A stretch of DNA of 64,000 nt from Amphiscolops sp. MND2022 (lineage: Eukaryota). The position numbers and the translations under genes were made by a program. Each line of letters begins with the position of its first letter. Positions within the stretch are counted from its first letter, which is position 1. The DNA lies in NCBI GenBank assembly GCA_964187785.1, contig OZ076409.1, forward strand, positions 52,020,001 through 52,084,000, in the 5' to 3' direction. The notes below the pieces were generated by a model that worked only from the letters and a program-made list of their open reading frames with translations, did not search any database and was not told the DNA's origin. Positions 12,705 to 45,347 of the stretch are shown here, piece by piece.

Positions 12705-12926
12705 TATATCAACCACGTGATTTTATGGAAAGAAAGTCCATTGGTGATGCAATGATAAATCATGTTTACGAATTCGACGTTTATAGTATCAATAATGATA
12801 TAAGTCTCTCATTGAAATTGCGAGCGATTGCAATCAGTTTCAATTCTTTATTAACTATAGCATGTAAGCGATATATTTATAAGGAACTCTTTTTAAGCTT
12901 TTTTGCCTGATTTGACTATTTTTCAG

Positions 12927-21498: not shown

Positions 21499-22053
21499 TC
21501 AATACTTTCTGTAAGAGCCACGTCCCGTGGTGTCTCTCAAATCACCAACGGACCGTGAATCCTTTTTCAATAATTTTGTTTTCAAGCCAGATGGATTTTC
21601 CCTATTTTCCTGACTACTAGGAGACATACTCATCTCAGTGTCCCTGTTCCCAGAGGAAGACATTGAACTCACAATATTCTGAATCTCCGGTAACACCTTC
21701 TCTGATATGGCGGTACTGATTGCTCTATTTATCTGACTATGTACCATGGCCATCATGGAATCCATCTCTTGAGATAACCTAAGATTAAATTCATTTGAAA
21801 AGGTTTCAAAGGATTGTCTTATGTCGTTTCGACCATGAGGCTCATTTCCTTGAATGAAATTTCCAAGATCATTTCTTGAGTGACTACCAATTTCTATGTC
21901 ACCATTAATGGAAGATTGGTCTATTACATCTGCTAACTCTCTTTCTAAAGGATTTTCACTCCCTATCATCACGTCTAAATTATCCATATCGGACAACATG
22001 TCCATCTCTTTGGATTTTCTAGCTTTCGCTTTCTGTCTTCTTGTGGAAGGCAT
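21499..22053 (-). CDS. Truncated Gag N-terminus (184 aa) encoded by the 3' LTR, ending in flanking host DNA
   Basis: Identical to Gag residues 1-181 except one D/N change. The last codons (RKY, stop) come from the TSD and flank. Expression unknown. Confidence 0.6.
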   Translation of the reverse strand: MPSTRRQKAKARKSKEMDMLSDMDNLDVMIGSENPLERELADVIDQSSINGDIEIGSHSRNDLGNFIQGNEPHGRNDIRQSFETFSNEFNLRLSQEMDSMMAMVHSQINRAISTAISEKVLPEIQNIVSSMSSSGNRDTEMSMSPSSQENRENPSGLKTKLLKKDSRSVGDLRDTTGRGSYRKY

Positions 22054-23140
22054 AAGAGTTTATTGCAAGAGATAAGAATTTAAATTAAGTTCTCAGGCTT
22101 GCAAACAGAGTATGTTGAAACGATTTTAACAAGTTTGAGTATTACGGTATCAAGGAAATTGAAAAAGTCCTTGGGACCTAGGGTCCACGGTATATATACT
22201 CAGGTTTACATGACTTGCAAAATAATGAGGGTCACGTTCTAAAAATAGCCTTCACAGCTATCTAAAAATAGCACCTACTATTTATAGCCATGAAGGCGGC
22301 ATGACGAAAGGGTCACTTCAAAGGGGTGATTTATTCAAGCGCCTTCAACAATTCCATATATAGAAGGATTGTAGGTCCAAGCATCCCTCAAGGCCTTTCA
22401 TATGTGAGGTTTAGCAACATTACATGCAATTACATTTGATCAACCATAACTTACATGTACCAACTCATTAATCTGAGTATTCATGTAAATTATTAATATC
22501 TAGCATCAAATGGTACAAATGGTCCAGTAATCTTCATCAAAACGAGTATTTATTAGAAACACCAATCATAGCCCTTATTTACCACTGTAAATTGCACTTT
22601 ACTTTAATTTGGACTCAGTGTCCATTTGCCGTAAATAGGCAGCAAATTACTACTAGCTGACGGCGCGTGGCCTTAGAGTCCTTTAATTTAGAATACTGCG
22701 CACAGTGAATGAAATGAATGGCGTGTTCTGATTGGCTAAGAATTTGGACGGACTGCGTGTCCAGCGAGACAGGAGAGGAAACATTTGAACTCGTTTCCTT
22801 TCCTGTACGCCTTGGTGTCCAATTTCTTAGCTAATACATTAAATATACAGTGTTTACATGCATCAATGTATCAAAATCAACTTCGTAGTTTTCAACTAAC
22901 CAAATGGTATTTCCGATTAATAATTTGCACAAGATTTTATATATAAGGCTGTCAAAACTGAAAATAGAATAATAGACATGCCGTAAAAATATTACAAATT
23001 CAGTTTGAAGTTTTTGTCCCGTCATGACAATGGGACACATGGTCCTTTCCTCTAGTTTATTGGCAGAGTACCTGGGAGGGCGCGAAAACAGCTGTAATTG
23101 ATGGTGTAAAAGTTCCCATCGCAGGCGGGAGCCTGCGACA
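21510..23140 (-). repeat. 3' LTR of the Gypsy element
   Basis: Direct repeat of 35571-37201 at offset 14061; only about 4 substitutions seen by eye. Confidence 0.97.
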
Positions 23141-23891
23141 CTCCCCCTGGCATGAGAAGAAAAGTTCCGGCTGTCATCCCGTCTAGAAATGCTCTCTTTC
23201 TTGCTTGCGTCTCCGCTAGCGTTTCTCCCACTGCGACCGTCTTGCTGATGTAATCATCTGCAGCTTCCTCGCGTATTTGATGTGTTGATTTACCACAGAT
23301 CACACAGTCCGAATAGGTCGATTCAGCTGTAGGCACCCCGATTTCCAAGTCATTAAAATGATTGGCCATAGAATCAATCGTCGGGGCATCTGATACGTAA
23401 GACCCACTCGATGTCGGTTGAGGGCAGTATTGTCCTCTGTCTGCATCTGGTGGGGATAGTGGCGTATCGACCATCGGGACAAGATTGCGGCACAAGTTTA
23501 TCGGGTGGTTCCGCTTAATTCTACTGTCTGCCCTTAGGGGCCCATTGCCTCTCCCCAGGCTAAAGTAAGTCTGGTCGAACTTAGGAAACGGAGGCAAGTT
23601 TGGCCTTCTGTGTTCGTTTGCCTGATTCGCGGCAGAAGAAGAGGTGTAGGGAATCGCTATGGGCTCGGACATCTGTGTTTCGACGCATAAGGCCATCTGA
23701 GCAACTTCTTCCGACTCATCCTCCGAGGAGGACAAGAAATCGGTTATCGAGGAAACGCTCCTGCATTCCATTGTCTCCTCTTCGTCGCTTGAAATGTAAA
23801 TGATCCCATCTCCTGGGGCAGCTCCTTGGAAGTCCTCCGGATAGGTCCTTTCGGGTTCGGAGTCATACAAAGGCGAGACAAGGCTATTCAT
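23052..23891 (-). CDS. Accessory ORF3 of the Gypsy element (279 aa, unknown function, not env-like)
   Basis: ATG-initiated open frame in the env position. Acidic N-terminus with IIYISSDEEE, a CVIC motif, no signal peptide or TM segment. The last 89 nt lie inside the 3' LTR. Confidence 0.75.
   Translation of the reverse strand: MNSLVSPLYDSEPERTYPEDFQGAAPGDGIIYISSDEEETMECRSVSSITDFLSSSEDESEEVAQMALCVETQMSEPIAIPYTSSSAANQANEHRRPNLPPFPKFDQTYFSLGRGNGPLRADSRIKRNHPINLCRNLVPMVDTPLSPPDADRGQYCPQPTSSGSYVSDAPTIDSMANHFNDLEIGVPTAESTYSDCVICGKSTHQIREEAADDYISKTVAVGETLAETQARKRAFLDGMTAGTFLLMPGGVSQAPACDGNFYTINYSCFRALPGTLPIN
23141..23148 (-). other. Polypurine tract
   Basis: Minus-strand AGGGGGAG directly abuts the TG of the 3' LTR. 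Confidence 0.85.
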
Positions 23892-25181
23892 ATCGAATCT
23901 TTTTTTGAATATTTTCTTCGCTATCTTGAAGGAATTTAGTGGTTTTCAATTCAGAAATGTTTGAAGAGGACGGCTGAATTCAAGAATGAAACTGAGAGGA
24001 ATAGCGGATTTATTTCCGACAGTCCGTGAGTCTCTTCGTTTCGTTTTTCCCGGGGTTCCGCTACCTCTCCAAGTAATAACTTCTCGACAACAAAATTCTT
24101 CCCTTTTGAATTCTTTCATCAAGCCGCAGAGTTGCTTTGTAATTGTCGGCGCCGCCTTAACTATCTATCAACAACTAAGTTAACACTTCTAACTTAAGAG
24201 CGCGGTCTCGAGTGTTTATTAACACTCATCAGATACTTGAGGATTTCAAGTGGGTGAAGATATGACGGCCAGCCACGCCGTCCACCATCGATATGCTCAG
24301 CCAATAAGAAAGCAGCAAAATTTCTCCCAAGCTAACATGGCTTCTCAAGGTCGCGAACCCGTATAAGGAATGATATAAAATGACCTTGAAAATAAAATAA
24401 AATAAAATAAAGTGAAACAAGATAAAATCATGAAATAACTCTGCAAAATAATAAAGTTTTCGAAATAAATAGGGGAAATGTAGATATCGCTGGCGGACCC
24501 TATCCACATAATGCCATAAATTGTAAATAGTAATAAATTTGACACCAAATTGTACAGCCACGAACTCCAATCTTGACATCTTGTCACATCGCCAATTCTT
24601 CTTTCAATTCTTTATCATCCAGTTGTATTATTCACTTCTTGTATTATCCAGTATTTAATCACCACATTTACTCTACATCGTAATTAATCCATAGTTAGTT
24701 TCAGTCTACAAGTCGTTTTTATTTATATATTTCTTTATATCTCCATCCCACTTTCATCTTCGGACTCAGCGTCCACACGTCCCTAATCCTACGGATCCGC
24801 AAGGAATACTCTGTCTAATCGACATCCAGTCCAGCTCGGTGATCTTAGTCAGTTTCAACATCCCCAACTTTCTTCACACATACGGTGCAGCAACTTCCAT
24901 CTTCATCGCTACATACTACTTCAGAAGCCGATTTGTGTCTTTGCGAGGATCTACTGATATACTGCCGGTACTGAATTCCAAGTAAGTAGTTGCTCTTCTT
25001 TTGTTTTGAATAGAGATTAGGCTTGATCAGGGCTTTAATCACTTTCATTGACTTCCTGTCCATATAACACAAGCGTTCACAAGTGTTCAAACAAATCAAC
25101 TTCCGGAAGATTTTTAAATGCGGTAAAATGGATTTTAATTCAGGAAGGTTCCCGCTTGATTTCTTCTCTTTTTATTTAGAC

Positions 25182-26876
25182 ATGTCGTCAGAGAACGTTC
25201 TCGAAGAAGCTACTACAATACCTCCTGGCACAGAGGGACAAGAACAGTCAGCAAATCCCCTCCCTGCCGTTGTCAGCTTAACACAAGTCATTCCCCAGGA
25301 GACTTTAACCCCCAGTCCATCAACAGAAGAGAGTGTCAGTGCATATGTAGAGCGCACATTACAAGAATTAGGGCCCCAGCATGAAGTTTGCTTCAACCCG
25401 ACCATTGAGGCCGAATCGACAGAGCCAACTCCGGAACAGCCCATACCAAAGGCATCCGTCTCAGATGCAATCGACAAGCCCATTGAAGGGAATGAGGGCC
25501 AGCCAGACGTATTAGTGGAGACTGAAACTCATGATGAAGAAATGAGTGAAGAGGGCCAATTTAAGCTCAAAGCAGACTACTTTCAAACTGATACTAGTTC
25601 GGTAGAGGAGCTTTACGATAGTGCCGGGGCGGATACCACGACTCGTAAGCTCACATTTATAACTTCTGGGGTTGCTGATCCAGAGGAGGAGGGACAAGAA
25701 GATCTGGATACAGGCCGCCTAGCTGAGACATCCAGTGTTGTTACTCGCGTACGACAATCGAAGGAAAAGACTGGCCTTACTGTCCCTGGTCGAGCATTAC
25801 TTAAGAAGTATTTCGATGAGGCCCCACCGGTTCACTTGCCTGTTGGACACCGAACCCTGGCTCTTAGTGAGCCACAAGTCCATGCATTACTCAAGGTTGT
25901 CTCAGATGAAGCCGTTTCGTCGTCGTTGCACACGATGCATTCACTGGTCAACGAAGTTCTCAAAGCCGGCAGTAGGATGAACAGGGAATGGACCGTACCC
26001 GGAGGTTCTCGGGGTCCCCGTACAAATTCTGAGAGCTCAGCAGACGATACATCCCGAGGCGGACACACTACCGATGACTATACAAGTGGGGCTTTAAGTT
26101 CCGATGACGATTTCATCACCCGGCGACCCACACTTCCCCAAATGTCGACGGACAATCAGGCTACTACGACTGAAGCAGTTACGTCCAGTGAAATGATCCC
26201 TAGTCCGGGGTTTACTGCCTCTGACTACAGGCCATTATCCCAGTTGTGTTCTCCTCAATCACCCGAGGGTCCCAAAAGACCCGTTCGAAAACGCAGGAAG
26301 GTGGCTGGGTCTACAGGAAAAGTCATGAAAGAAGCTTATTTTAAAGGCATAAAATGGACCAAAACCTTTGTGACCGGCCCCTTGGACCCAGAGCACAATA
26401 AACACAAATTTTATTGTCAAATCTGCAAGTCCAATATTTCCATGTTCTCAAAGGGGGCCAGGGAAATCGTCAGGCACTACCAGTCAGAGTCGCACCTTCG
26501 AAAAGACCAGCGCTGGAGGTACGAAAACCTACGGCTTGTGGACCCGGTGACTGGCCAAGTGAGACACGAAGTCCGGGGCAGAGACGGACAAGTCCTTACG
26601 CCAGTCGAGTTGGAGAAGGAAAAACCCCTTTTTGAGAACGCCGTTTTAGTTGACATAGGGGACAAGCACCCCTTTTACGACGACTACATTGCCGGAACAA
26701 TCGCTACACCCAGCTCTGAAGAAATTAGAATTTGTACTCAGATTTCCCTGATTGGCCACTTCGTCCCTCAGTGTGGAGACGTCCTGTTACTCCAGACTTT
26801 GTGGAACCAGATTGGCATAGCAGCCAACCACAAGGAACCATTTTCACCTCTCGAGTGGGGCGCTACCACTTTGACC
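25182..26876 (+). CDS. Antisense cargo gene, coding exon 1: acidic low-complexity region, NLS, BED/C2H2-like zinc finger
   Basis: ATG at 25182 follows a pyrimidine tract and AG (25178-79). Contains PKRPVRKRRK and FYCQICK..IVRHYQSESH. Phase-0 donor GTAAGT at 26877. Confidence 0.85.
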
Positions 26877-26958
26877 GTAAGTATTCTTTCCTTTCTGACT
26901 CCGTTATCGTCGTAAGGTTTCCAATTGTCATCGTCTCATCTATCCCTTTATATTTCAG

Positions 26959-27444
26959 ACTATCTTCCACCACATTTTCCTCTGCGGAAGGAGCGACATA
27001 GCACACCACGTGAACGTCTCCGGCAAGTACTCCCTGGAGTTTGAACCTTCAGGCCTTCATTGTATTGTGTCAATCCGTTTCTGGAAGGCAGACACTTTGT
27101 GTACCGTTCGCCTCATGCAGTACCGCCTCGCCAGTGACCATGCCGCTGGACTGTTGACAGCAATAGCGCGCATCTTCTCATTCTTGTCAGTACAGCCTCA
27201 GTTGGTCAGTGTGTCCTGCTGTCCGTCGGAACTCATTCCTATTTTGGAACAGTCGGGCCTGTTAACGAAAGGGATCCAGTACCCATTTAGATTTGATACA
27301 TTTTCTTTGCCCAAGCTCATGCATCAGAAATGGGGAAGCGTCTTCGGAGGGATCAACTTTTTCTCTCAACTCCGATTCTTAGTCACATTCCTAGATGGTT
27401 GTCAGGACGAGATCTGGGCCACTCAGTCTCCTGAACTCGGCAAG
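26959..27444 (+). CDS. Antisense cargo gene, coding exon 2
   Basis: Acceptor tatttcag (26958), open frame TIFHHIF..PELGK, phase-0 donor GTAAAT at 27445. Confidence 0.8.
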
Positions 27445-27518
27445 GTAAATATAATCAAATCTGTTTTGGCGGGTGGACTAATAGTCAGATTTCGCTCCCA
27501 AGTAATCCTTTCGTTTAG

Positions 27519-27735
27519 GCGATTTCAACTTGTTCTCTTGAAATCACATCAGTTCCTGCAATATGTTCCGAGCTGCTGGCGGACTGGAGGGCGGTGCATG
27601 ATTATATGACCCGAGTTGCTCCGACGCAAGAAAACCAGGGAGTGAGGCATAGACCCCAAAGTTTAGAGTGGAGCATAATTGGTGATGAGTTCTTTCATCT
27701 CAAACTCGAATTCTTTGGCCGAATTGTCCGTGATT
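27519..27735 (+). CDS. Antisense cargo gene, coding exon 3
   Basis: Acceptor cgtttag (27518), open frame AISTCS..LLADWRAVHDYM..HLKLEFFGRIVRD, phase-1 donor GTTAGT at 27736. Confidence 0.75.
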
Positions 27736-27884
27736 GTTAGTATTTTCTTTTCTTTCATGGGCCAATTATGTGTATAAGCATAGTTACTCGCATTCAAGCT
27801 CACGTAGGGCCATTATTGTCCGAACGGACTAGGGGTCTACTCATCTATCACTAGTGTATTCTCAAAAGGTTCGTTGTTTTGCAG

Positions 27885-29038
27885 ATACCAAGTGCTTCGA
27901 GGGCAGTCTCTCTCAGCGGAAAGACTCTGGCTTCCTTACGTACCGCGAGTTACGGCAGTTCGTGCGGAAGCTCTGCTACAGATCCTTGCTTCCAAAACAT
28001 TTGCCTGATGAGGCCGACTGGACTGGGCTACACTCATTACAGGGAGAGTCGCTCACTCAGCTTTCGTCACGGGATTTCCTCAATCGGTTAAAACTTAAAG
28101 GAGACCTGGACGCAGCTTGTCGGGCCAGAGCCAAACGTGAGGCCGACGATCCCCAAAGTGTGTACACTGATTCTGAAGCCGCGGTTGAAGCAGTTAAGGA
28201 AGAATTTGCCTCCAAGGCTCGCAGTTACCTGGTTCGCCTTCTGGAACGTTTCCTTGATGACATCAGCTTCAATTCTGACATCGTTAAGGGTATGAGTTGC
28301 TTTGACCCTGTGGTCCTCCTTTCCGTGAGCTTTGATCAAGCTGCTCTTTGTTTTTCTACCCTCTATTACTCCTTCAGCTTGCGAGGATGGGTGTCCAATA
28401 CCCCAGAGACTGAGGCCCGGGATGAGTACCTTGAGTTCGTGGACTTCTTCCGTACCAAGTACCACGACTTTAAAGATGTTCCAGAAACTTTTACTGACAT
28501 GATTGGGTTACTGACTCCCATGCCTGAGTTGAGGTCCCGTCGGCACTTGTTCCATTTATTCCAGTTGAGTTGTCTTTGCTTGACTTCCCAGATTCCCAAG
28601 CTGCCAGCTATCAAGTTCCAGGGCGTAAATAGCAATGATCCTCGCTGTCGATTGTCCAGTGTCTTACTTCCTGCTCAGTCCTATTTAGCAAACGTGGTTG
28701 GGTCAGTAGCTGTATGTACAACTGAGGCTTATTTGGAGAAATATCGCGCGCTTGAGTCCAGATTCATCAGTGGGAATGTTGCAGGTGACCCCTGGGTCCA
28801 CATTGACAGCTTTGGCAAGGCCAATTTCCTTAAGACTCTTATTTCTGCTCAGAAGGCTTTGAAAGATAAACCTCGCTCTGCTAGTCGGTCACCTTCGTCA
28901 TCGGTATCCAGTACTGGATGTCAGCGGCGTAAACGCAGTCCAATCAAAGATAAGAAAGGAGTGAAGTTTGGGGCTGTCTCCTTTTCTAAAGCACCCACTG
29001 CCAGTGATACTCTGTTGCCCGGGAGCTCTAAAGACTAA
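27885..29038 (+). CDS. Antisense cargo gene, last exon (hAT-transposase-like helical C-terminal half)
   Basis: Acceptor gttttgcag (27884) joins in phase 1 to the long ORF ending TAA at 29038. The four exons total 3552 nt, or 1183 aa plus stop. Confidence 0.85.
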
Positions 29039-29236: not shown

Positions 29237-32200
29237 TTAATATCTGTATTCGTCAGTGAAGTTGGGGGTTGGGTTAGGTCGAAGATTATATTTCCCTCCT
29301 CTAGGGCTAGAAGTTTCTTCATCTTTTCCATTTTCCGATATTCCGGGCACGGTAATATCTACGCCTCCTTTTGAAGCAATTTCCGCATTTTCTAAATCAT
29401 TTGTGACGTCATTTTGATTTGCCGTCCCACGTGGCGTTTCGCTCAGTGGGGACGACGCGTCACGGCTGCCAGCCGGTCTCGGCCTTATTTCATTCTCGTT
29501 GACGTCATTTGCATTTTCCGCCCCAGTAGTCGATTCATGTGGAAGGGACGACGCGTCACGGCTGCTAGCCGGTCTCGGCCTTATTTCATTCTCGTTGACG
29601 TCATTTTCATTCATTCTCTCGCTGCTGCATTCACTTTCATTTACTCTGCTGCTTTCATTCTCGGTGACGTAATAGTCGACTCCACCATTCGTGGCGTCTT
29701 GCGGCAGACGCGTGGCCGTGTCTGGCCAATCATTTTTCTTCGGCTCGAATTGCTCGTATTCAAAGTCCGCTTCCCATGAAATGGTATACAAATCATCTTG
29801 CGGTATTACGATTTCTTCATCAGGCTGTAATTTCTCTTCTTGGTATTTGTCCTCTAACGGAGCATTTGGGCCAAATTTTTTGAGCCTGATCCGGTGCAAA
29901 ATCTGCGTTTTATTCGTATTTAAACGACGCACTATGTAATTGTTATTTGGTAGAGTTTTTTGAACGACAAAAGGACCAATCCAACGGAAGTCCCTGAATG
30001 GTATTTTAGAGCCTTGACTATCCGCTTTTGGTTGAAGAACAAAACAATAGTCCTTTTCTTGTAGCGGAGCCGCTTTGGCCTTGCGGTCGTAGTATTCTTT
30101 GTACTTTAAATACGACTGCATAATATTCTTTTTGGTCTGATCAATGAGGATTTGCGTCCTCTGCTGTAATTCTTCCGCGAATTCAGTCGTCGGTAGGAAA
30201 TTTTTGTTAGGATTATTCCCTAATTTGTGATCCAGGACGTTATAGGGAATGCGGCCATGAAAGACTTTGCTAGGCTCACAACCAATACTAGCGTGATAAG
30301 TAGTGTTATAGTTAAGCACAGCTAATGGTAAATATTTGTGCCATTGACGACGGTATTCCCCTGAGGCCATCTTTAGGTTGGTTTTTAAAGAGGCGTGTGT
30401 CCTTTCGAGTTTACCAATAGTTTGCGGATGTTTAGTAGTGGCACACTTCAATGTGATCCCCAATATTGCAGTAATTTCTTCTAAAATTTTTGATGTAAAT
30501 GCGGATCCCTTGTCCGTGATGAGTGTTGTTGGCAAATACGAATGTTTCGTCATGATGTCAATTATCACCTTGGCTACGTTTGCGGCTGTTGCCTCAATTA
30601 GTGGGTAGGCGAATAAATATCTTGAAAATACATCTATTGCCGTCATCACCGTTTGGTATCCACCGCTAGTTGGTAAGTTTGGCAATAAATCGATTTGCAT
30701 GGCATCTTCTGGGCCTAGGTCCCATTCAGGTAAATTCAGTAATTCTGGGGTGATTACCGTGTTGGGGACTCTTTTGTCCTTGGCACATGTTTCGCAGCCT
30801 TCTACCCATTTTTTGACGTGTTTAGCAATTCCGGGGTAGTAGTATTTCTGGCGAATTTCTTGTAGCATTTTAGAAATGCCCGGGTGTCGATGTGCCGTGC
30901 CATGTATTGCTTGTAATAATTCTTTGAGCAAATGCTTTGGCAATAAGATTTGATGATATTTGACCTGTCCGGTTTCATCGTAGTACTGCCGTGTCACTAT
31001 CTCGTCTTTGAGGATTATTCGGTCTATGTTGTTCAAGTAATACTTGTACCGAATATCCTGTTGAAGGATTTCTTCAGAGTATTCTTCTTTTTGAAGTTTC
31101 GCCTTCAATTGGAGGAGAATCGGGTCTCTGGACTGTTCAAGCAGTATCTGATTTGTTCTTCTTAATTTCTGCGTGAAATTAGTAATCTCTTCGACGGTAT
31201 TTTCTGATATAGCGTCAATTTGGATTACTGTCTCAGGGACTATGAGACCTTTTTTGGATTGTTGTTTCCGTTTCCAAATCTGTTCTTCTGTTTCATTGTC
31301 CTCCTCAGTGAAGAAAATTGGCTCTTCTTCTGATACGCCGGCCGATTGGACATTGACTTCGATTGGTCTAGTTTCTACGTCCTCTCGTATTTTCAGGACC
31401 AACTTTTCGGTAGGGTCCATTTCCATGCGGGACAAGTAGTCTGCCGCTGTATTGTTTTTGCCTGGAATGTGAGCTATAATGAAGTTGAATTGAATGACAA
31501 AATCACAAGCATTCCAGAGAGGCGGTGGAATTATCTTTGTCTGGAAGAACCTCGTGACCGATTTGTTATCTGTGAGGATAATCACGGGTTGAGGTGTTCC
31601 CCAGAAGATATGTCCAAACTCCTTAAATACATAATATATAGCTAGGAATTCCTTTGCATATATCGACATTTTAAGTTGAGAAGGCGTGAAAGTTTTGGAT
31701 CCATATGCAATCGGCGCATAGGACTTTTTAACAGAAGTGTATTTCTGATTTGGGTCGTCTTCGGTCAATATGGCGTAACCGGCTGCTGTAAAACTCGCGT
31801 CAGTCATAAGGACCAGTTGTTTGTTCGGCAGAGGTTGTTTCAACGCCAATTGACTACATCGGTCTAAATCGCGGTTGATCTCATTAAATTGTTCAACTAG
31901 CTCTTGCGTAACTAGTACTTTTTCATCCTTTTTGAGCAATTGGAAGAAGGGAACTAGTTTTTCGGATAGCCTTGGAATATAATTCCTGTAGTAATTGAGG
32001 AAACCAAGGTAGCGTTGTAAGGCCTTCTTGGACTTTGGGAATTTCGTCTTTTCCAAGAAGTTAGTGATTCTTTCTTTTTGGGGTTTTACGCCTTCAGGTG
32101 TAATGGTTCTCCCAAGAAAGTCAATTTCAGTAGCGCCGAAATGGCACTTGTGCATGGACAATTTCAATCCTGCTTCTCTGATACATTGGAAGGTTGCTCT

Positions 32201-34402
32201 TAAGTTGACGATAAGCTGGTCGGCGTCTGTCGCCGCAACACCAATATCGTCCACATATTGAGCACATTGGTCTGCTTTTATGACACGATCCAAGTATTCC
32301 CTCATGAAACTGGAGAAGGCCGACAGGGCTCTACTGAGTCCTTGGGCTAATCTTCTATATGCAAATGTCCTGCTAGCGAAGTTAAATGCTAGCATTTCAA
32401 TCGACTTCTGGTCTGCCATAGGAAGGCAATGATAAGCTTGAGAACAGTCAAGTTTGCAAAAGAGCTTTTTGCCTGCCATATGTTGCGCCGCATCCGTCAG
32501 GGTACTGACTGGGTGATTGTTGTTGATATAATCGTCTGAGATGAGATTATTTATTTTCCTCAAATCAACCAACAGTCTCAATTTCCCATTGGGCTTTTTC
32601 TGCGCGAAGATGGGACTGGCATACTTTGAGAATGATAATGTCGTTATAATACCATATTTATGAAGTAACGCCAGTTCGACCAATATGTCCTCTTTGAGGT
32701 TGACTGGTGTAGGTAGGCTCTGACTGTAGGCAGGTGATTCGTCTTTTGGGGTCAGTTTGACCGTAAATTCCTCATTGACACCAATGTCAAATCTATGGCG
32801 CGCAAAGATGTCATGGAATTCCACTAATAGAGTTTCTATTTGTCTGATTTCATGTTGTTGTAACATTGAATCCTTCCAATCAAAATTACTGAGGAATTTT
32901 CGACGAGATTCCGCATCGTCGTGCGGGTTGAGTTGTTCTAAACTTTGCAGATTTCGTAATTCTTTGAGAATTCTTTGTTGTATTGGGGTGTGGGTCGTTT
33001 CGTCCCCTGGGTTTTCAGGCGTCGGGAACCAATATTGTTCGTATTGGTCATTATTTCTGTTAGCTTTAAGAAGGCTACTTATATAATAAATAGCGTCGTC
33101 TTCATTTTCATTCAGTAAGTGCCAGGTGGACACTGGGTCTATTGGCCTGACGTGTTTCATCTGTTCAGGGGTCATCACTGAGAAGTTTGCAATGTGCATC
33201 CCTTTCTTTATTTTATAGGGTTGATCAGTGAAATTGTTAACGTGTATTCTCATAACCCCTTCGTGTAGTGTGACTATGGCGGCGCAGAAGGTTATGTCGC
33301 CTTCTTCGTGCAGAAGATCGCTGGGTTGCAATATGCCCGTAACTGCATTTTCTGCGTAAATTTGTGATTGAATGGGTATGACCACATGGTCATTGGGCGG
33401 AATTGTGACATCCTCAGGATTGAGGATGGGTTCCAAAACATTTGAGTATTTATGGTCAGCCGTCTTGAGTTGCATCGAAAAATAGGGGAAGTTGAGTATA
33501 CCTTGGCGCATATCCAGGACAGTGTGGTTCCTTTGAAGGAACATTAGTCCAATTATGGGGCTTGACAGTTTTTCCATTACAATGAAAATTTCGTGAAATT
33601 CTATGTCGCCCACTTCGAATTTTAGTTCGACTGTGCTCTTTGGGGTTTCTAAGTCTCCATTTGCGACCATTATTTGGAAAGATGGGGCAGGACCTTCTTT
33701 TACAATGGATTGAGGGGCCAATAGGCGTATTTTCCTGAGGTCTGCCTCCGGGATTGCACTGGAGTGAGCTCCAGTGTCTATCAGGCCAACTAGAGTTAAT
33801 TCCCCAAAGTCCATTGGGAAATAGAGCATTCGTCGTTTGAATTTAAGTCCAAGGTTTGTTGAAAGGGGAACGTATGGTAATTCTCCTTCGTTGGTCACTA
33901 GAAGGTGTAAGAAGACTGTCTCGTCTAAAAGACTATTAGGAGCCTTGTGGTCCTCCTGTGTGTGTATGGTGTCTACTTCTTGTATAGTTGCCTCAAAGTT
34001 CGGCTGCCAAAGATCAATGAGGGCCCGAGACAGTGTGTTATCTTCAATGTCTGGGTCGTCCTCGTCGTCAGTTGGGGGGTAATCTTCATTTCGAAATTGT
34101 AAATTGGTTTTGTCATATAGTTCTTCGTCCCAGTATGGGTCTTTGCCATACTCGGGGTCATAGTATTGAGGGTTATAATCTTCGACAGTTTTTAAAGGGC
34201 GAAAGTGAGTTTCCAAATCGTTGCGGTTACTGTTCCGTCGATATAAGTATGGATGATCACTGTGGATGATATATTGAGTTTCTCTGCGGGCGTCGGCCAT
34301 CTGCTGCTGCCAGACAGTCGATGGCATCCCTGTGGTGTCGTTTTGAGTTTGTTTATATGTAATGTTTGCAGGGTCAGATATGACGTACTGTCGTACTGAC
34401 AT
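29237..34402 (-). CDS. pol: Pol polyprotein: aspartic protease, dUTPase-like spacer, RT, RNase H, integrase with GPF motif
   Basis: LIDTGA; LDCSQAYH and YVDD; LMTDAS, KEFLA, TDNKS; HGTAHRH..CETC, IDLL, TDKG, LERTH; WIGPFVV; terminal YNLRP. 1721 codons without a stop. Confidence 0.97.
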   Translation of the reverse strand: MSVRQYVISDPANITYKQTQNDTTGMPSTVWQQQMADARRETQYIIHSDHPYLYRRNSNRNDLETHFRPLKTVEDYNPQYYDPEYGKDPYWDEELYDKTNLQFRNEDYPPTDDEDDPDIEDNTLSRALIDLWQPNFEATIQEVDTIHTQEDHKAPNSLLDETVFLHLLVTNEGELPYVPLSTNLGLKFKRRMLYFPMDFGELTLVGLIDTGAHSSAIPEADLRKIRLLAPQSIVKEGPAPSFQIMVANGDLETPKSTVELKFEVGDIEFHEIFIVMEKLSSPIIGLMFLQRNHTVLDMRQGILNFPYFSMQLKTADHKYSNVLEPILNPEDVTIPPNDHVVIPIQSQIYAENAVTGILQPSDLLHEEGDITFCAAIVTLHEGVMRIHVNNFTDQPYKIKKGMHIANFSVMTPEQMKHVRPIDPVSTWHLLNENEDDAIYYISSLLKANRNNDQYEQYWFPTPENPGDETTHTPIQQRILKELRNLQSLEQLNPHDDAESRRKFLSNFDWKDSMLQQHEIRQIETLLVEFHDIFARHRFDIGVNEEFTVKLTPKDESPAYSQSLPTPVNLKEDILVELALLHKYGIITTLSFSKYASPIFAQKKPNGKLRLLVDLRKINNLISDDYINNNHPVSTLTDAAQHMAGKKLFCKLDCSQAYHCLPMADQKSIEMLAFNFASRTFAYRRLAQGLSRALSAFSSFMREYLDRVIKADQCAQYVDDIGVAATDADQLIVNLRATFQCIREAGLKLSMHKCHFGATEIDFLGRTITPEGVKPQKERITNFLEKTKFPKSKKALQRYLGFLNYYRNYIPRLSEKLVPFFQLLKKDEKVLVTQELVEQFNEINRDLDRCSQLALKQPLPNKQLVLMTDASFTAAGYAILTEDDPNQKYTSVKKSYAPIAYGSKTFTPSQLKMSIYAKEFLAIYYVFKEFGHIFWGTPQPVIILTDNKSVTRFFQTKIIPPPLWNACDFVIQFNFIIAHIPGKNNTAADYLSRMEMDPTEKLVLKIREDVETRPIEVNVQSAGVSEEEPIFFTEEDNETEEQIWKRKQQSKKGLIVPETVIQIDAISENTVEEITNFTQKLRRTNQILLEQSRDPILLQLKAKLQKEEYSEEILQQDIRYKYYLNNIDRIILKDEIVTRQYYDETGQVKYHQILLPKHLLKELLQAIHGTAHRHPGISKMLQEIRQKYYYPGIAKHVKKWVEGCETCAKDKRVPNTVITPELLNLPEWDLGPEDAMQIDLLPNLPTSGGYQTVMTAIDVFSRYLFAYPLIEATAANVAKVIIDIMTKHSYLPTTLITDKGSAFTSKILEEITAILGITLKCATTKHPQTIGKLERTHASLKTNLKMASGEYRRQWHKYLPLAVLNYNTTYHASIGCEPSKVFHGRIPYNVLDHKLGNNPNKNFLPTTEFAEELQQRTQILIDQTKKNIMQSYLKYKEYYDRKAKAAPLQEKDYCFVLQPKADSQGSKIPFRDFRWIGPFVVQKTLPNNNYIVRRLNTNKTQILHRIRLKKFGPNAPLEDKYQEEKLQPDEEIVIPQDDLYTISWEADFEYEQFEPKKNDWPDTATRLPQDATNGGVDYYVTENESSRVNESECSSERMNENDVNENEIRPRPASSRDASSLPHESTTGAENANDVNENEIRPRPAGSRDASSPLSETPRGTANQNDVTNDLENAEIASKGGVDITVPGISENGKDEETSSPRGGKYNLRPNPTPNFTDEYRY
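29449..29606. repeat. In-frame duplication with a 96-bp period in the integrase C-terminal tail
   Basis: gacgacgcgtcacggctgc..gacgtcattt at 29451 and 29547; peptide NDVNENEIRPRPA(S/G)SRDASS occurs twice. Confidence 0.9.
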
Positions 34403-34431
34403 CTTGTTACATATTTGGAGTCGTGGCGAAA

Positions 34432-36114
34432 TTAGTTTTTTGAGTCCGTTTTTCGTGGGTTTGATTGGCTCGAAGATGCAGTTTCGGGGTTAGTTGATTT
34501 TTTAGACAACTTTTCATCGCCGGAGTTTTCATCGGCTTTATCTTCGGGTCTTGTCCTTTTGGGACGTAGATGTGCTCCAGCCCCTTTCCAGCATCTTTCA
34601 ACGGGGTGATTTTTCTTTCCGCAAGTAGGACATTCTGGGTATGTGGGACGTTGGGGCTTTTTGCCATTTTTGTCCTCCAATTCTTTCTTCTTTTTCAATT
34701 TGGGGCAGCTCTTATAAAAGTGGCCTGTGGCTTTACAATAAGAGCATTGTGCGTCCTTATTAGTATTTATGCCATTAGAGAGCAGATTGTTGTTACTGGT
34801 GGACGCAGAGGCCATTGTGGCGATTGGCAAATCGTCTGACTCTTCTAATGCGTTGAGTTCAAGCTCTCTTTCAAGATGAGCGACGATTTCCTCATATGTC
34901 CCGTTCTCCAGGCGGGCCATATTGACAGATCGTTTTAATTTTGGAGGCAGTTTTGCATACAATAAGCTGTCAATCATGCTTTTTGCATTCTCACCGAAAG
35001 CTTTTTCTGCCCCCTGGTTCAGTTCTTCTAAGAAATCCGGCAGTTTCATGGTATTCGGATCGAAAGTCAGCCGATGCCATTTGTGTTTTGCCGTTGCTTG
35101 GGATTCCGGTTTGACATATTTTCTCCGGAATATGATCAGCACGTCCTCGAGTGTTTGGCGGTTAATTGAGTTTATGTTCCTGAAGGTCTGCAAGGCTCCT
35201 TTCCTGAGCAGTGAATGGAAATGGTTAATTTTCATTTGCTCTGTCATGGCCGGTTGCATTTTGATCATTGTGTGGAACAAATCTTCAAAGAGTTCGAATT
35301 TCTCACTCTTTCCGTCAAACGTCATAGGGGTTGTTTGGACAGGCCGGATAGTCATCGTTTGGGGTTTGTTTTGCAAATTGACTAGTACATCAGCCAATCT
35401 ATTGAGCGGGTCCTGAGGTGGCTCTGTGACCTCTGGTTCTGGCGCTGGCAGAGTGGTGTCCAAAGAGACATTGTGGTTAGATTGCTGTCTCTCTAGGTTC
35501 GGGATTGAGTGGATTCGTCCAGTAAGAAATTCAGGTATAGGCTGTTGGGCTTCGTTAGCTCCTGTCACCATGTAAGAGCCACGTCCCGTGGTGTCTCTCA
35601 AATCACCAACGGACCGTGAATCCTTTTTCAATAATTTTGTTTTCAAGCCAGATGGATTTTCCCTATTTTCCTGACTACTAGGAGACATACTCATCTCAGT
35701 GTCCCTGTTCCCAGAGGAAGACATTGAACTCACAATATTCTGAATCTCCGGTAACACCTTCTCTGATATGGCGGTACTGATTGCTCTATTTATCTGACTA
35801 TGTACCATGGCCATCATGGAATCCATCTCTTGAGATAACCTAAGATTAAATTCATTTGAAAAGGTTTCAAAGGATTGTCTTATGTCGTTTCGACCATGAG
35901 GCTCATTTCCTTGAATGAAATTTCCAAGATCATTTCTTGAGTGACTACCAATTTCTATGTCACCATTAATGGAAGATTGGTCTATTACATTTGCTAACTC
36001 TCTTTCTAAAGGATTTTCACTCCCTATCATCACGTCTAAATTATCCATATCGGACAACATGTCCATCTCTTTGGATTTTCTAGCTTTCGCTTTCTGTCTT
36101 CTTGTGGAAGGCAT
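34432..36114 (-). CDS. gag: Gag (560 aa), starting inside the 5' LTR
   Basis: Capsid-like FDGKSEKFELFEDLF region and two CCHC knuckles (CSYCKATGHFYKSC, CPTCGKKNHPVERC). The first 181 codons lie within the LTR. Confidence 0.95.
   Translation of the reverse strand: MPSTRRQKAKARKSKEMDMLSDMDNLDVMIGSENPLERELANVIDQSSINGDIEIGSHSRNDLGNFIQGNEPHGRNDIRQSFETFSNEFNLRLSQEMDSMMAMVHSQINRAISTAISEKVLPEIQNIVSSMSSSGNRDTEMSMSPSSQENRENPSGLKTKLLKKDSRSVGDLRDTTGRGSYMVTGANEAQQPIPEFLTGRIHSIPNLERQQSNHNVSLDTTLPAPEPEVTEPPQDPLNRLADVLVNLQNKPQTMTIRPVQTTPMTFDGKSEKFELFEDLFHTMIKMQPAMTEQMKINHFHSLLRKGALQTFRNINSINRQTLEDVLIIFRRKYVKPESQATAKHKWHRLTFDPNTMKLPDFLEELNQGAEKAFGENAKSMIDSLLYAKLPPKLKRSVNMARLENGTYEEIVAHLERELELNALEESDDLPIATMASASTSNNNLLSNGINTNKDAQCSYCKATGHFYKSCPKLKKKKELEDKNGKKPQRPTYPECPTCGKKNHPVERCWKGAGAHLRPKRTRPEDKADENSGDEKLSKKSTNPETASSSQSNPRKTDSKN
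34435..34441 (-). promoter_or_regulatory. -1 ribosomal frameshift heptamer A AAA AAC
   Basis: Gag ends TCA AAA AAC TAA. The -1 frame reads CTA ATT TCG..AAG ATG without a stop into the pol ORF. Confidence 0.85.
35559..35570 (-). other. Primer-binding site TGGTGACAGGAG
   Basis: Starts with TGG immediately after the terminal CA of the 5' LTR. The cognate tRNA is not identified (similar to a Leu-type PBS). Confidence 0.85.
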
Positions 36115-37201
36115 AAGAGTTTATTGCAAGAGGTAAGAATTTAAATTAAGTTCTCAGGCTTGCAAACAGAGTATGTTGAAACGATTTTAACAAGTTTGAG
36201 TATTACGGTATCAAGGAAATTGAAAAAGTCCTTGGGACCTAGGGTCCACGGTATATATACTCAGGTTTACATGACTTGCAAAATAATGAGGGTCACGTTC
36301 TAAAAATAGCCTTCACAGCTATCTAAAAATAGCACCTACTATTTATAGCCATGAAGGCGGCATGACGAAAGGGTCACTTCAAAGGGGTGATTTATTCAAG
36401 CGCCTTCAACAATTCCATATATAGAAGGATTGTAGGTCCAAGCATCCCTCAAGGCCTTTCATATGTGAGGTTAAGCAACATTACATGCAATTACATTTGA
36501 TCAACCATAACTTACATGTTCCAACTCATTAATCTGAGTATTCATGTAAATTATTAATATCTAGCATCAAATGGTACAAATGGTCCAGTAATCTTCATCA
36601 AAACGAGTATTTATTAGAAACACCAATCATAGCCCTTATTTACCACTGTAAATTGCACTTTACTTTAATTTGGACTCAGTGTCCATTTGCCGTAAATAGG
36701 CAGCAAATTACTACTAGCTGACGGCGCGTGGCCTTAGAGTCCTTTAATTTAGAATACTGCGCACAGTGAATGAAATGAATGGCGTGTTCTGATTGGCTAA
36801 GAATTTGGACGGACTGCGTGTCCAGCGAGACAGGAGAGGAAACATTTGAACTCGTTTCCTTTCCTGTACGCCTTGGTGTCCAATTTCTTAGCTAATACAT
36901 TAAATATACAGTGTTTACATGCATCAATGTATCAAAATCAACTTCGTAGTTTTCAACTAACCAAATGGTATTTCCGATTAATAATTTGCACAAGATTTTA
37001 TATATAAGGCTGTCAAAACTGAAAATAGAATAATAGACATGCCGTAAAAATATTACAAATTCAGTTTGAAGTTTTTGTCCCGTCATGACAATGGGACACA
37101 TGGTCCTTTCCTCTAGTTTATTGGCAGAGTACCTGGGAGGGCGCGAAAACAGCTGTAATTGATGGTGTAAAAGTTCCCATCGCAGGCGGGAGCCTGCGAC
37201 A
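35571..37201 (-). repeat. 5' LTR of the Gypsy element
   Basis: TG..CA ends. On the minus strand: CCAAT near 36792, TATAAATA at about 36347-36340, AATAAA at 36125-36120. Confidence 0.97.
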
Positions 37202-38319
37202 CTTTCTATCCATGATTCATCCTTGATTAATGGGTTCACCATACCGAGAACAAATTTATGATGAATTCACGTTTTGAAATAGTTTGTATCAAAAATTTTT
37301 TGTTTGCTCTTTAAAAGACTTGACAGTAATTGATGCTTTCAAACACTAGTAATGAAGTTTCTGTTCAGAAAGTTATTTCTCGAAAAGTTTCTCAGGAATC
37401 CTTCCTTTACTTTACTGGGTTTTTACAGCCAAAATTTTCATCAACATAGTTCTTTCCATTCTAATTACTCCGCTGAAATGTTTGAAAAATTTCACATTTG
37501 ATGGAGCATTCCATGGTTAACAAAAACATGTGATTTTTTGTCATTAATCTTCTTGGGTGATTCATGGGTTATTCTGATTGAAGCCACGATCAAGGATGAA
37601 TATCGACACTGCAGAATGTGAAGACAATCATGAAAATTTGCCATGAAACGGGATATTAAGGTCATGGAAAAGTCGAGATAATGGTTGAAACGTCGAGAAC
37701 GAGCCTAGTTGGTCAACCAGGGAACAAAAAGCGCAGTGGAACGACGGAAGTTGACCTTTCAGAAATATATCCAGACAGAGTTGCGTGCTTCAGCATAACC
37801 ATACCCAACACACACACATTGCTCCAGCCCTGCTTATAATCTACATGGAAACGAATCAATCTCTCATCTGCAGTTTTCTTCTACTTTTTGCCGTTTTCCA
37901 AACTAACATTTAAAAATATAAAGACGGAAAACAAAGCCGAAAAAAAATAGGTTTGTAGGGTGCACAGTGGTTTCTTGCATTTTCGAACAAAATGCTTTTT
38001 ATGAAGAGCAAAATAGGAGATAACTTTTCGATTTTTAACCATTTCACGCATTTTTGGTACGTTTTTTGAATGATTCCGTGGGTATGATAATCGACAGTTC
38101 AACAGAGCAATTAGCTTTTTAGCAAATTTTTCTATGGCAAAGAGTTCGTTTTTCAATTCAAAAAACTTCCCAAAATGTACCAAATTTTTCTGCTCCAACA
38201 AATTCAAATTGTTGCGTCTGATTGTGTTATCGTCTCCAAAGAAATGCGCAGAATAATATTTTGATCAACTAAAGTCATATATTTATTTATGCCATAGTGA
38301 GTTTTTCAAATATAGGGTA

Positions 38320-41152: not shown

Positions 41153-44100
41153 TGTCACAGCCCGCTCCCGGCTGTTATCGCTTTAAACGCGATTGTTTTG
41201 GTTAAATATACTAGTGTGAACTAATTGAAATCCTTTTTGTGACGTCATCGACACAGCCACGCTAGCAGTACGTTATTATTTGGAATGATTTTGTGACGTC
41301 ACTAATTAGACAATTGGAATGATTTTCTAATGCGCAACGTAACGTCTCCAAAAACCGCTGGTCAGCTATAGCTAATTTTATTACGTACGGAGTGCTTACG
41401 GAGCAAATTGTAAAGTTCTAAAGCTATACCTAATTTTATTACGTACGGAGCGCTTACGGAACAATTGTAAGATTGTAATTATCAAATTAGGGTCGTAAAA
41501 ACAATTTAGTAGGAAATTTCCTCAGGAATTAATGAATTTCAAAGATTTTCTGAAAAGAATGCAACGTAAGGGCAACGTCATATTATTGGATATTTTCTTT
41601 TGAATGAAGTTTATACTAATATTTTCATCAAGTGTTCTGCATTTATATTATGAAATCGAAATTGTCAATCGAAGTAATAACGTGTTAATGTCACTAATCG
41701 ATGTTCTGATTAGCGTTTTCTCAAGTGTGGAATTTGTTGACCGAATGGTCCCCGTTGTTTTAGTATTTATGTGATTGTATGTTTATCTTAGATATATTTA
41801 CGTCGTTTTATGTTCGTGCTAATAATAATGGCAATAACTTGAAACTGTTATTCCGGTATCATTTGTTCCTTTTCATCAGTATTCAAATGTTTCCGCATTC
41901 AAAATTATTTGCTCCGTTTTAGTTGCGTTGCCATTTTTGCTAGTCATACTTTTATCTTGAAAATTTGGATTCCCAACTTGGAAATTGACTAATTAATCAC
42001 GCCGGCGTGCCTCCGTTGTTGAAAATATCAAGCAGGCTCTCATTTTGCCGCCATTTTAACGCTGAAACAGGAAGTGTATCGTTCGAACAGAAATGATTTC
42101 AACAAATATTACGGAAGGTTGACGCGACTAGAATTTCGATACCTGATTTAGTGACGCGGGACTGAAATAATATGAATCAACTGGGTTGTTGCATGAACAA
42201 ACCCAATTTTTATGATACCTAGGAATTTTTAGGTGAGGAACAAATGATGCTAGGAAAGTATAAATATGTTTGTTTTGTAAATTAAATCAGCTAGTTAATA
42301 GTGATCATTGTTGCATTGTTTTACTCCGTTGTTGAAACGATTTTGGAAATTCAAATTCTTTCAATCTCCTTGTCTCAACTCAAATATGAAAACTCAAAGT
42401 GAGAAAAGCCTTAAAACATTTTCATTGCATCCACATCAACTTCCATAAAAAAATAAAACGACTACCTAAAATAATCCTCCGTTAGGTAGTCGTAACATGG
42501 TGACAGGAATTAAAACGATTCCACGAACGACCAAATCAACATCAAGAGATGCGCAACAGGAACAGAACAGAAGCAAGGACGACAGCCGAATTCAATTGGA
42601 ACTCGGATAGAGAAGAGATTACGAACTGAATTCGTAAGTGGTTACTTTAGAATGGAACAATTAGAGTTACGTTTTGACCACGAAAATGAGCAGTCAGTAA
42701 CAGAAACTAACCTTCAAAAATTGTGCCAGCATTGAACATGTGATTGTGGTCGAAAAAGAATCGTGAATTTATTGCTTTCTCCAGAAAAATGGAACAAGGT
42801 ACCTTCAATTTTTTCACCTAATTCGTCCCCGACTGAAGAGTCCAAGCCAACGACTGCATGACGTGATAAACAAGACAGTGGAAAAACTCCCTGAAATTAT
42901 ATTAAATGTCGACTGATAAATGCAGGAATGCCTCCTAGCAATCACAAGCAATCCTTGTTACCGTGTTTTCTACGTTACACAACTCTCCAAAAATGTTCCG
43001 TAATACACCCACGGATCATTGAGCCAGTACAGAATGAAATGAAAGACTATATCTTTGTCAGTTTTTTTCCAAACGAGGGGGAAACATCTCGCTCGGACGA
43101 AATGTAGCAATTTTTAACCGATTCAGTATAACACTGAGCAGCGACAGAAAGAACATCTTCATCGACGGAAGTCTGACGTGGGGTGACTGGGACAGAAATC
43201 CAGGACTTGGGACTATGAATTCTTCTCATTCGACAGCAACAGTAAAAGAAATAAAACTGAGATAAATGACATCGGGAGCTACTTCAGTTACAGTTTGGCC
43301 GAAGTTGGAAGCCAAGATGGTGGAAACGGAAGGCGACGTTGTTGTGCCGGACGGACGAAACACGTCCGAAATCCCAAAAGGAACAACTCCCGAAGTGTCA
43401 GGTTGAGTTACTGAAAATCAAGATCTGGATTCAGACGCGTCAGGTAATCGGGTAGGACTCAAAGGCTGATCACCAAAACAACAGTCCAACAACCCATGGA
43501 AGTCAGAAAGATTTTACCAACCTGAAGCAACGAGCGCAACTTCCACCTCCGAGAGAACAACGTCATCGTCGGAGTAGTTGTAGTTTATCCCCTTTCCACT
43601 AACAAAACCTGCCACAGGAACAGCAGTAGAACGAACAATTTCGGCGTCCCCCATTGAAACTAGCAGAAGTTTCTTCGAAACAACATAAAAGAAAAGAACA
43701 ACTGAAAGAAAAAATCAAGAAAAGCACTTTGAAAACAGTGACGTCACATCGACGTAATTGCTTCGGAAAGGATTGACAACGTCATAACGACGTAGCTGAA
43801 GAAGAAACGGAGAATGAAAATCAGAAATATTTTTATTCACGTTTCGGCCAATAACAGCGCAGACAGAAGCAAAACGCTTTCAAAAATTCAGGCGAACCGC
43901 AACGAAGAATGAAAATCAACAAATAGGATATCTGTGAAAATACTGACCTCAAAAGACTACGAATATCAGTCGGAATTTGAGAATCCTCGCTGACGTAAGA
44001 AAGAAGTGAAACGACAAAAACCCGCATATCGTCTTCTTTTCTTCCCGAGTGGTCCTGTCACAACCCGCTCCCGGCTGTTATCGCTTTAAAAGCGATTGTG

Positions 44101-45347
44101 TTGGTTAAATATACTAGTGTGAACTAATTGGAATGCTTTTTGTGACGTCACTAATTAGACAATTGGAATGATTTTCTAATGCGCATCGTAACGTCTCCGT
44201 AAACCGCTGGTCAGCTATAGCTAATTTTTTTACGTACGGAGTGCTTACGGAGCAAATTGTTAAGTTCTAAAGCTATACCTAATCTTAATACGTACGGAGC
44301 GCTTACGGAACAATTGTAAGATTGTAATTATCAAATTAGGGTCGTAAAAACAATTTAGTAGGAAATTTCCTCAGGATTTGATGAATTTCAAAGATTTTCT
44401 GAAAAGAATGCAACGTAAGGGCAACGTCATATTATTGGGTATTTTCTTTTGAATGAAGTTTATACTAATATTTTCATTAAGTGTTCTGCATTTATATTAT
44501 GAAATCGAAATTGTCAATCGAAGTAATAACGTGTTAATGTCACTAATCGATGTTCTGATTAGCGTTTTCTCAAGTGTGGAATTTGTTGACCGAATGGTCC
44601 CCGTTGTTTTAGTATTTATGTGATTGTATGTTTATCTTAGATATATTTACGTCGTTTTATGTTCGTGCTAATAATAATGGCAATAACTTGAAACTGTTAT
44701 TCCGGTATCATTTGTTCCTTTTCATCAGTATTCAAATGTTTCCGCATTCAAAATTATTTGCTCCGTTTTAGTTGCGTTGCCATTTTTGCTAGTCATACTT
44801 TTATCTTGAATATTTGGATTCCCAACTTGGAAATTGACTAATTGATCACGCCGGCGTGCCTCCGTCGATGAAAATATCAAGCAAGCTCTCATTTTGCCGC
44901 CATTTTGACGCTGAAACAGGAAGTGTATAGTTTGAACAAAAATGATTTCAACAGATATTACGGAAGGTTGACGCGACTAGGAGTTTCGATGTCTGATTTA
45001 GTGACGCGGGACTGAAATAATATGAATCAACTGGGTTTTTGCATGAACAAACCCAATTTTTATGATACCTAGGAATTTTTAGGTGAGGAACAAATGATGC
45101 TAGGAAAGTATAAATATGTTTGTTTTGTGAATTAAATCAGCTAGTTAATAGTGATCATTGTTGCATTGTTTTACTCCGTTGTTGAAACGATTTTGGAAAT
45201 TCAATTTCTTTCAATCTCCTTGTCTCAACTCAAATATGAAAACTCGAAGTCAGAAAAGCCTTAAAGTATTTTCATTGCATCTACATCAACTTCCATAAAA
45301 AAATAAAACGACTACCTAAAATAACACTCCGTTAGGTAGTCGTAACA
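41153..45347 (+). mobile_element. Non-autonomous LTR retroelement, 4195 bp (large LTRs, 1.56-kb internal region without gag/pol)
   Basis: LTRs 41153-42497 and 44056-45347 with TGTCAC..GTAACA ends, TSD ACATG (41148-41152 and 45348-45352), PBS TGGTGACAGGAA at 42498. Confidence 0.93.

Follow-up and report, generated by a model that had tools for sequence, protein, structure and literature searches.

In the genome of Amphiscolops sp. MND2022 a Ty3/gypsy-type long terminal repeat (LTR) retrotransposon has its gag gene starting far inside the 5' LTR, and from there the frame runs on through the LTR end and the primer-binding site (PBS). The element is complete, measures 15.7 kb and lies on the minus strand from 37201 to 21510 of the stretch analysed, which is 64,000 nt of contig OZ076409.1 (positions 52,020,001 to 52,084,000, here called the window). 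Its gag ATG at 36114 is LTR position 1088 and so 544 nt, or 181 codons and one nucleotide, lie within the LTR, after which the junction TAC A/TG GTG ACA GGA (YMVTG; the slash is the LTR end) carries gag across the CA/TGG boundary in frame. A preliminary description of the window had put 181 codons of gag in the LTR and read the terminal CA and the PBS TGG as an in-frame ATG; with exact LTR borders both are as described, and the observation of a gag start inside the LTR is confirmed. We consider it likely that gag contains both the LTR end and the PBS, at a disordered linker joining an N-terminal to a capsid domain, with transcription from a start predicted by motifs, a single Gag and a border that arrived stepwise. 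The relevant parts are:

35571..37201, minus strand: 5' LTR, 1631 bp, TGT...ACA
21510..23140, minus strand: 3' LTR, 1631 bp, TGT...ACA, with a second copy of the gag start inside
37202..37206, the other copy at 21505-21509: target-site duplication CTTTC, on both flanks of the element
34432..36114, minus strand: gag open reading frame (ORF), 560 aa, with the LTR-coded part, a linker, a capsid-like helical core (about 256-424) and two CCHC-type knuckles
35571..36114, minus strand: LTR-coded part of gag, 181 codons plus 1 nt
36025..36114, minus strand: gag codons 1-30, a basic tip (7 K/R in the first 20 residues) and conserved block
35716..35895, minus strand: gag codons 74-133, a predicted long helix and conserved block, a three-chain bundle in the model
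35569..35571, minus strand: junction ATG, codon 182, made of the final A of the LTR and the TG of the PBS
35559..35570, minus strand: PBS TGGTGACAGGAG, translated as Gag, its first 11 nt common to a second family (L001) and a non-autonomous element

With 4 differences between the two LTRs and CTTTC on either flank, the insertion is a young one whose LTRs have exact borders. The gag frame cannot begin earlier because an in-frame TAA stands 3 codons upstream of the ATG. Nor is the open frame a chance one, since none of 3000 composition-matched resamplings gave an ATG-started frame of 181 codons open to the LTR end, the 99th percentile of open-frame length in them being about 50 codons.

The same layout recurs in relatives. 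A search with Gag residues 1-330 returned 2504 proteins, and among the best 120 of these (77-100% identity) 117 have their start at the corresponding ATG and the junction MVTG is there in every one of the 120, in a ranking that itself favours proteins with the long start and the junction motif. Clustering at 50% gives 1805 representatives, and in the best 150 of them 25 matches start in the LTR part and finish in an unrelated tail, 16 of the 25 ending at residues 180-184 with identities of 47-90%. These matches represent 3' or solo LTRs, whose end they place at one and the same codon across families 47-90% identical. The window holds an ORF of this form:

21499..22053, minus strand: LTR-only ORF of 184 aa in the 3' LTR, the 181 Gag codons followed by host flank

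The second family is represented by one metagenome locus among the matches listed (L001), with a core 46% identical and a 1792-bp LTR that has 388 coding nt and the same 3n+1 phase, PBS, polypurine tract and TGT start. It has one LTR only, and so its LTR end was checked on protein relatives: 7449 short proteins match its LTR frame, and 107 of the best 120 diverge directly after codon 129, the next residue in 106 of the 107 being codable by an A-first codon (A being the final LTR base). The tails of these LTR-only ORFs are unrelated to one another. The same break at the junction is seen in four short proteins from two further clusters, whose LTR parts have 194 and 195 codons, and in four families in all, with 129 to 195 LTR codons, LTR-only ORFs lose similarity exactly at the junction codon. 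Thirty-nine representatives have both the junction motif and downstream Gag, 28 with sequence upstream of the motif (at least 113 residues in 12) and 11 starting at it. All 28 that cross the junction have Y, H, D or N before the MVTG-like motif, against a background of 24%, which fits an LTR ending in ACA because NAC codons give exactly those four residues. The families compared are related and these counts are not independent events. Conservation of the LTR frame among families, on which the preliminary description had made its reading hinge, is borne out by the junction phase kept in several of them, and on these comparisons a gag start in the LTR is the layout of the lineage at large. The viral contigs and prokaryote genomes searched held no relative, and a search with P0160 as query returned P0160 itself and nothing else.

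Selection on the LTR-coded part as protein is well supported by codon comparison, and seems far weaker than that on the capsid. The codon test is of one DNA pair, the window element and an old copy elsewhere in the window:

12183..12770, plus strand: old decayed copy of the LTR-coded gag part, of another family, 40% identical in protein over residues 1-127, with no PBS after it

In a DNA-guided alignment of the two, identity at codon positions 1, 2 and 3 is 122/175, 118/176 and 84/175, and so third positions diverge most (84/175 identical against 240/351 at the first two, p=7e-6), which argues that the LTR part is selected as protein. The third-position excess is there in the ungapped blocks alone (p=7e-5), the two conserved blocks have a ratio of nonsynonymous to synonymous change (pN/pS) of 0.51 (bootstrap 0.35-0.74), and the U3 upstream is barely alignable (score 235 against a shuffled mean of 185 and maximum of 210). 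When frames are compared, that of gag is free of stops and has a ratio of 0.57; the remaining sense frames contain 11-14 stops at ratios of 1.05-1.5, and one antisense shadow frame, which has 3 stops, comes to 0.51. Under neutral substitution the frame stayed open in 16 of 400 runs at 70% identity, in 1 at 50% and in 2 at 40%, and natural relatives keep it open at 32-41% identity. In a test of conservativeness on 92 of 101 full-length proteins, grouped in 4 subfamilies, the ratio of change between subfamilies to private change is 0.62 for codons 1-30, 1.55 for 31-75, 0.81 for 76-133, 0.83 for 134-181 and 0.05 for the capsid, the conserved blocks differing from the variable stretch at p=0.039. 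A further element in the window bears on the DNA itself:

41153..45347, plus strand: non-autonomous relative, 4.2 kb, with a 1345-bp 5' LTR, LTRs 97% identical, an ACATG duplication, the same PBS and no long sense ORF

This relative keeps the candidate TATA box TATAAATA, the LTR ends and the PBS, and has only 37 codons with two stops from its candidate ATG to the junction. Because it has lost the long coding stretch and kept the other features, the comparison suggests that the stretch is dispensable in cis.

What is encoded seems to be a basic tip followed by a self-associating helix. The first 20 residues contain 5-8 K/R in 11 of the 12 N-termini examined and 4 in the twelfth, and the remainder is net acidic in all 12. 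AlphaFold2 predicts a confident helix at 74-133 (predicted local distance difference test, pLDDT, about 82-92 over residues 81-130), in line with the preliminary description of a basic and helical N-terminal part, basic at the tip and helical in the middle. Residues 135-234 are predicted to be disordered, and so the LTR end and PBS would fall in a disordered linker. When residues 68-140 are modelled as three copies the score is 0.57, against 0.02 for the best control, with at least 87% shared contacts and pLDDT of at least 74. The mark for such complex models is reached by 21/30 solved homo-pairs and 0/23 single chains from microbes, and by 17/29 solved homo-pairs (animals 7/16) and 0/30 single chains from eukaryotes. 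The modelling supports self-association of the helix, with the number of chains not fixed by it; the hydrophobic period is about 3.8-3.9 in the closer families. For the LTR-coded part Pfam gave nothing below E 0.02 and the Atlas search a best value of 0.77 and no lead, and the whole Gag model found nothing in Foldseek at E<=0.001, capsid chains appearing only at E>0.4. Gag itself matches DUF1759 at E 2.7e-5, just under the cut-off, and its relatives match Retrotrans_gag, Ty3_capsid and zf-CCHC weakly.

The signals that would feed this frame are two:

36340..36347, minus strand: candidate TATA box TATAAATA, 233 nt upstream of the gag ATG, its function predicted
36120..36125, minus strand: AATAAA, candidate poly(A) signal, the sole one downstream of the candidate TATA box in the 5' LTR

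Three LTRs contain one TATAAATA each, that of the window element at -233 from the ATG, that of L001 at -197 and that of the non-autonomous element at -127, with chances of occurrence of 0.008, 0.023 and 0.034. The AATAAA (36125-36120) stops 5 nt upstream of the gag ATG, where the preliminary description had it, and folding predicted no hairpin that hides it. AATAAA is described as the best conserved motif of animal Metaviridae LTRs, exact U3/R/U5 borders needing RNA (PMC3601003), and here the start site and the U5 label are predictions from motifs. The earlier claim of a protein-coding U5 divides: that the LTR part is coding stands on the kept frame and the third-position excess, and the name U5 comes from TATAAATA at -233 and the AATAAA, the LTR-coded frame being independent of that label.

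The transcript would begin behind TATAAATA, about 200 nt before the gag ATG, and a single minimal upstream ATG lies between the predicted cap and that start codon. The cap-proximal AATAAA would be passed over in the 5' LTR and would act in the 3' LTR, giving a short R and a U5 of about 500 nt that is all coding. Translation from the LTR ATG would then yield one long Gag, in which the basic tip and the self-associating helix would replace a matrix domain, possibly for RNA binding or targeting and as a helical stalk on the capsid. Minus-strand strong-stop DNA would run from PBS to cap (about 750 nt), and because it is copied over that length the 5' third of gag would be duplicated into the 3' LTR in every cycle. 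As to the primer, a tRNA scan of the window gave 0 genes that might supply one for the PBS, and Tf1-type self-priming was rejected, there being no complement of at least 7 nt to the PBS start within the LTR.

The border itself seems to have moved. Among the best 120 short L001-family proteins 13 continue with an MVTG-like peptide; 7 of these are broken 5' copies continuing into Gag, and the other 6, with two from the unrelated-tail class (8/120 together), keep their similarity for another 11-14 codons, up to a second boundary, PH or SH. These eight deeper-ending LTR ORFs have a relic MVTG-like peptide ahead of that boundary and an A-first-type residue after it. In L001 CCCTCACATGG recurs in frame 42 nt past the junction (9720-9780), and P0126 has three CCCTCACATGG-type peptide repeats. 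The LTR-end/PBS motif (ACA/TGG) would duplicate in frame, the downstream copy becoming the working border and the relic staying in the LTR, and it is probably by small in-frame duplications of this kind that the LTR crept into an existing gag, rather than by U5 gaining codons. The preliminary description had spoken of an N-terminal extension being added, which may have the direction wrong; to judge from the deeper-ending ORFs, an LTR end and PBS moving into an existing gag fits at least equally well.

Several points weigh against a selected, lineage-wide and self-associating LTR-coded domain. The codon test is of a single pair with one decayed member; the LTR part is 70% identical where the capsid keeps 98%, a fast drift; and over all 181 LTR codons between-subfamily changes are not more conservative than private ones (p=0.24), codons 31-75 and 134-181 looking little constrained. 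The candidate ATG of the non-autonomous element was picked by eye. The complex mark was calibrated on two copies rather than three and with few animal cases, and the amphipathicity of the window helix (1.24) is not higher than the best of 15 shuffles (1.32). The L001-family N-terminus has no detectable similarity to that of the window (80/200 shuffles score as high), and so a common ancestry of all the N-terminal extensions is unsupported. Protein databases contain open frames only, and 11 of the 39 junction-bearing representatives do start at MVTG. The position of the AATAAA varies among the three LTRs (-11; -61 and +15; +66), and no G/T-rich stretch is found directly downstream of it.

Of the other explanations, the one that survives best is that of two Gag isoforms, given as possible in the preliminary description, and we hold it improbable. 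The long form would begin at the LTR ATG and the short one, with the capsid at its front, at the junction ATG, reached by leaky scanning, an internal start site or an internal transcript. The junction Met is present in 120/120 near-length homologues, but that ATG is automatic from CA plus TGG and is kept by the non-autonomous element too. The junction ATG stands in a fair context (T at -3, G at +4) and the LTR ATG in a poor-looking one (C at -3, C at +4), yet 19 ATGs, 12 of them in frame, precede the junction ATG counted from the predicted start. Ty1 is described as making p22 from an internal RNA (PMC5408680). The 11 representatives that start at the junction Met fall in clusters of 1-2, a weak point in that several long-form representatives are also singletons. 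All 15 listed members of a 37-member cluster have the long start, as have 12 of the 13 other listed members of the 14-member cluster of P0123, whose own start is seemingly near the junction. With the multi-member clusters inspected being long-form, the two isoforms are not supported.

That the true Gag starts at the junction, and that the upstream frame is a gag fossil which the LTR has engulfed and which persists only for the sake of cis signals at the DNA or RNA level, we regard as very unlikely. The fast divergence of the LTR part and its weak overall conservativeness favour such a fossil, but it has to accommodate the third-position excess and pN/pS near 0.5 in the gag frame, a frame open at 32-41% identity where neutral runs almost always close, the basic tip in families with unalignable extensions and the loss of the coding stretch in the non-autonomous relative. 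Least credible is a frame whose main product is a short protein of its own, made from 3' or solo LTRs or by splicing as for the CERV of Cer1, which shares peptides with GAG (PMC10309623 describes this), with gag read-through secondary: the 7449 short proteins matching the L001 LTR frame speak for it, and the junction phase kept in every family seen, the mutually unrelated tails of the LTR-only ORFs and the lack of a convincing splice donor, by a simple donor-site pattern, in the first 1.1 kb speak against it.

The layout, judged on the sequence, works like that of Ty1, in an element that belongs to Ty3/gypsy by its pol order. Direct LTRs with TG...CA ends and a short target-site duplication, the Pfam order protease, reverse transcriptase (RT), RNase H, integrase, a Gag with a capsid-like domain and a CCHC knuckle (on weak family matches), and a PBS after the 5' LTR with a polypurine tract before the 3' LTR are all those of Ty3/gypsy (Metaviridae), and Ty1/copia (Pseudoviridae) membership was rejected since integrase does not precede RT. 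An ORF that begins within the LTR and continues in frame over the PBS, as here, is the Ty1-type layout. The gag/LTR overlap of Ty1 is about 40 nt or 13 codons, whereas here it is 388-586 nt and a whole predicted domain, in another superfamily with RT before integrase. For Ty1 of Saccharomyces cerevisiae (Ty1/copia, Pseudoviridae) the PBS is described as inside the GAG ORF, as here (PMC4974528), and transcription as starting at +238 in the LTR (bioRxiv 10.1101/176248).

Most Ty3/gypsy Gags are described as beginning with the capsid, and Cer1 of C. elegans (Ty3/gypsy), likened here by description, as having a large Gag with a predicted N-terminal coiled coil instead of matrix, proposed for targeting and capsid spikes (PMC10309623). 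The same account gives changes at nt 957 and 1175 of Cer1 as in the 5' untranslated region, beyond its 492-bp LTR, and so the N-terminal domain there would not be LTR-coded. In plant CRM group A chromoviruses the coding region is described as entering the LTR, with a motif encoded there (PMC3059260), which is comparable with ORF3 of the window element, the end of pol being in the 3' LTR in those and the start of gag in the 5' LTR here. The rotifer elements Juno, Vesta and TelKA and the planarian Burro share with the window element a dUTPase-like domain between protease and RT, extra ORFs and large size, and no gag start inside the LTR is described for them in the excerpts concerned (PMC5408684; PMC6431247). 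The RT motif is YVDD, and in phmmer against solved structures the best matches are foamy virus RTs (1e-29), narrowly ahead of a caulimovirus polyprotein and Ty3. Those foamy virus matches are a likeness to the Odin retrotransposons and lokiretroviruses (PMC9040795), the RT E-values being too close to place a clade. Odin retrotransposons and retroviruses have a dual RNase H, a tether plus an active domain, from which the element may differ, Pfam giving one gypsy-type RNase H region only. Excerpts of PMC4600332, PMC7175516, PMC9040795, PMC6431247, PMC5408684 and bioRxiv 10.1101/2023.10.26.564294 hold no gag start inside the LTR, and searches of open-access papers turned up no account of a coding LTR of domain size in this lineage. 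What appears new relative to known coding LTRs is the scale, the selection and the creeping border.

The rest of the element comprises:

34435..34441, minus strand: slippery-type heptamer A AAA AAC directly 5' of the gag stop, pol being in the -1 frame, with putative frameshifting
29237..34489, minus strand: pol frame, with protease, dUTPase-like, RT, RNase H and integrase
25128..29038, plus strand: three antisense frames with a C2H2/BED-like finger, with counterparts in L001 at 2518-6888 (minus)
23052..23891, minus strand: sense ORF3, 279 aa, crossing the polypurine tract and ending 89 nt inside the 3' LTR
23141..23151, minus strand: polypurine tract ...GGGGGAG, immediately 5' of TGT

L001 likewise has pol in the -1 frame, with a slippery-type heptamer T TTA AAC directly before the gag stop (about 10954-10963). 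The dUTPase-like domain is at pol residues 329-411, between protease and RT (E 4.6e-5, above the cut-off), and the integrase tail has a 96-nt in-frame tandem repeat (29404-29611), L001 having a short repeat just past the pol stop. The three antisense frames are probably exons of one accessory gene. ORF3 is acidic and gave no match in Pfam; L001 has an ORF3-like frame (7282-8016, plus) ending 80 nt inside its LTR, and so, with 80-89 nt of U3 entered in both families, both LTR ends would be coding. Elsewhere in the window are a short fragment matching one Gag-family representative, P0146 (2000-2145), a 400-bp palindromic repeat resembling a miniature inverted-repeat transposable element (17113-17520), an 847-bp tandem duplication (52957-54661) and a 175-180 bp repeat array (55201-55622). 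Two ORFs are host-like, one a BT1-family transporter (18527-19429, minus; E 4e-8) and one with a weak sorting-nexin C-terminal match (12945-13643, plus). The flanks of the element have a GC content of about 36%, and acoel genomes are described as rich in LTR elements (PMC9911081).

LTRs are treated as non-coding control DNA, and here about a third of one seems to be a selected protein domain, the first third of Gag. A coding LTR would force a long strong-stop DNA and put tRNA priming in the path of translating ribosomes, and each insertion would copy a Gag fragment behind a promoter, so that every leftover LTR carries a piece of Gag. The subfamilies with shifted borders may show how an LTR comes to gain coding sequence. 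A wider view, which we put forward as doubtful, is that the LTR walked into gag across the lineage until it encoded an oligomerisation domain, leaving thousands of 3' and solo LTRs as promoter-plus-ORF cassettes whose truncated product could co-assemble with Gag as a copy-number-dependent brake or seed host genes. Were that true, the truncated product, a basic tip and helix with no capsid, would be the N-terminal mirror of the p22 of Ty1. A dominant-negative or gene-birth role can be tested on the many LTR-only ORFs, which will also inflate host gene annotations.

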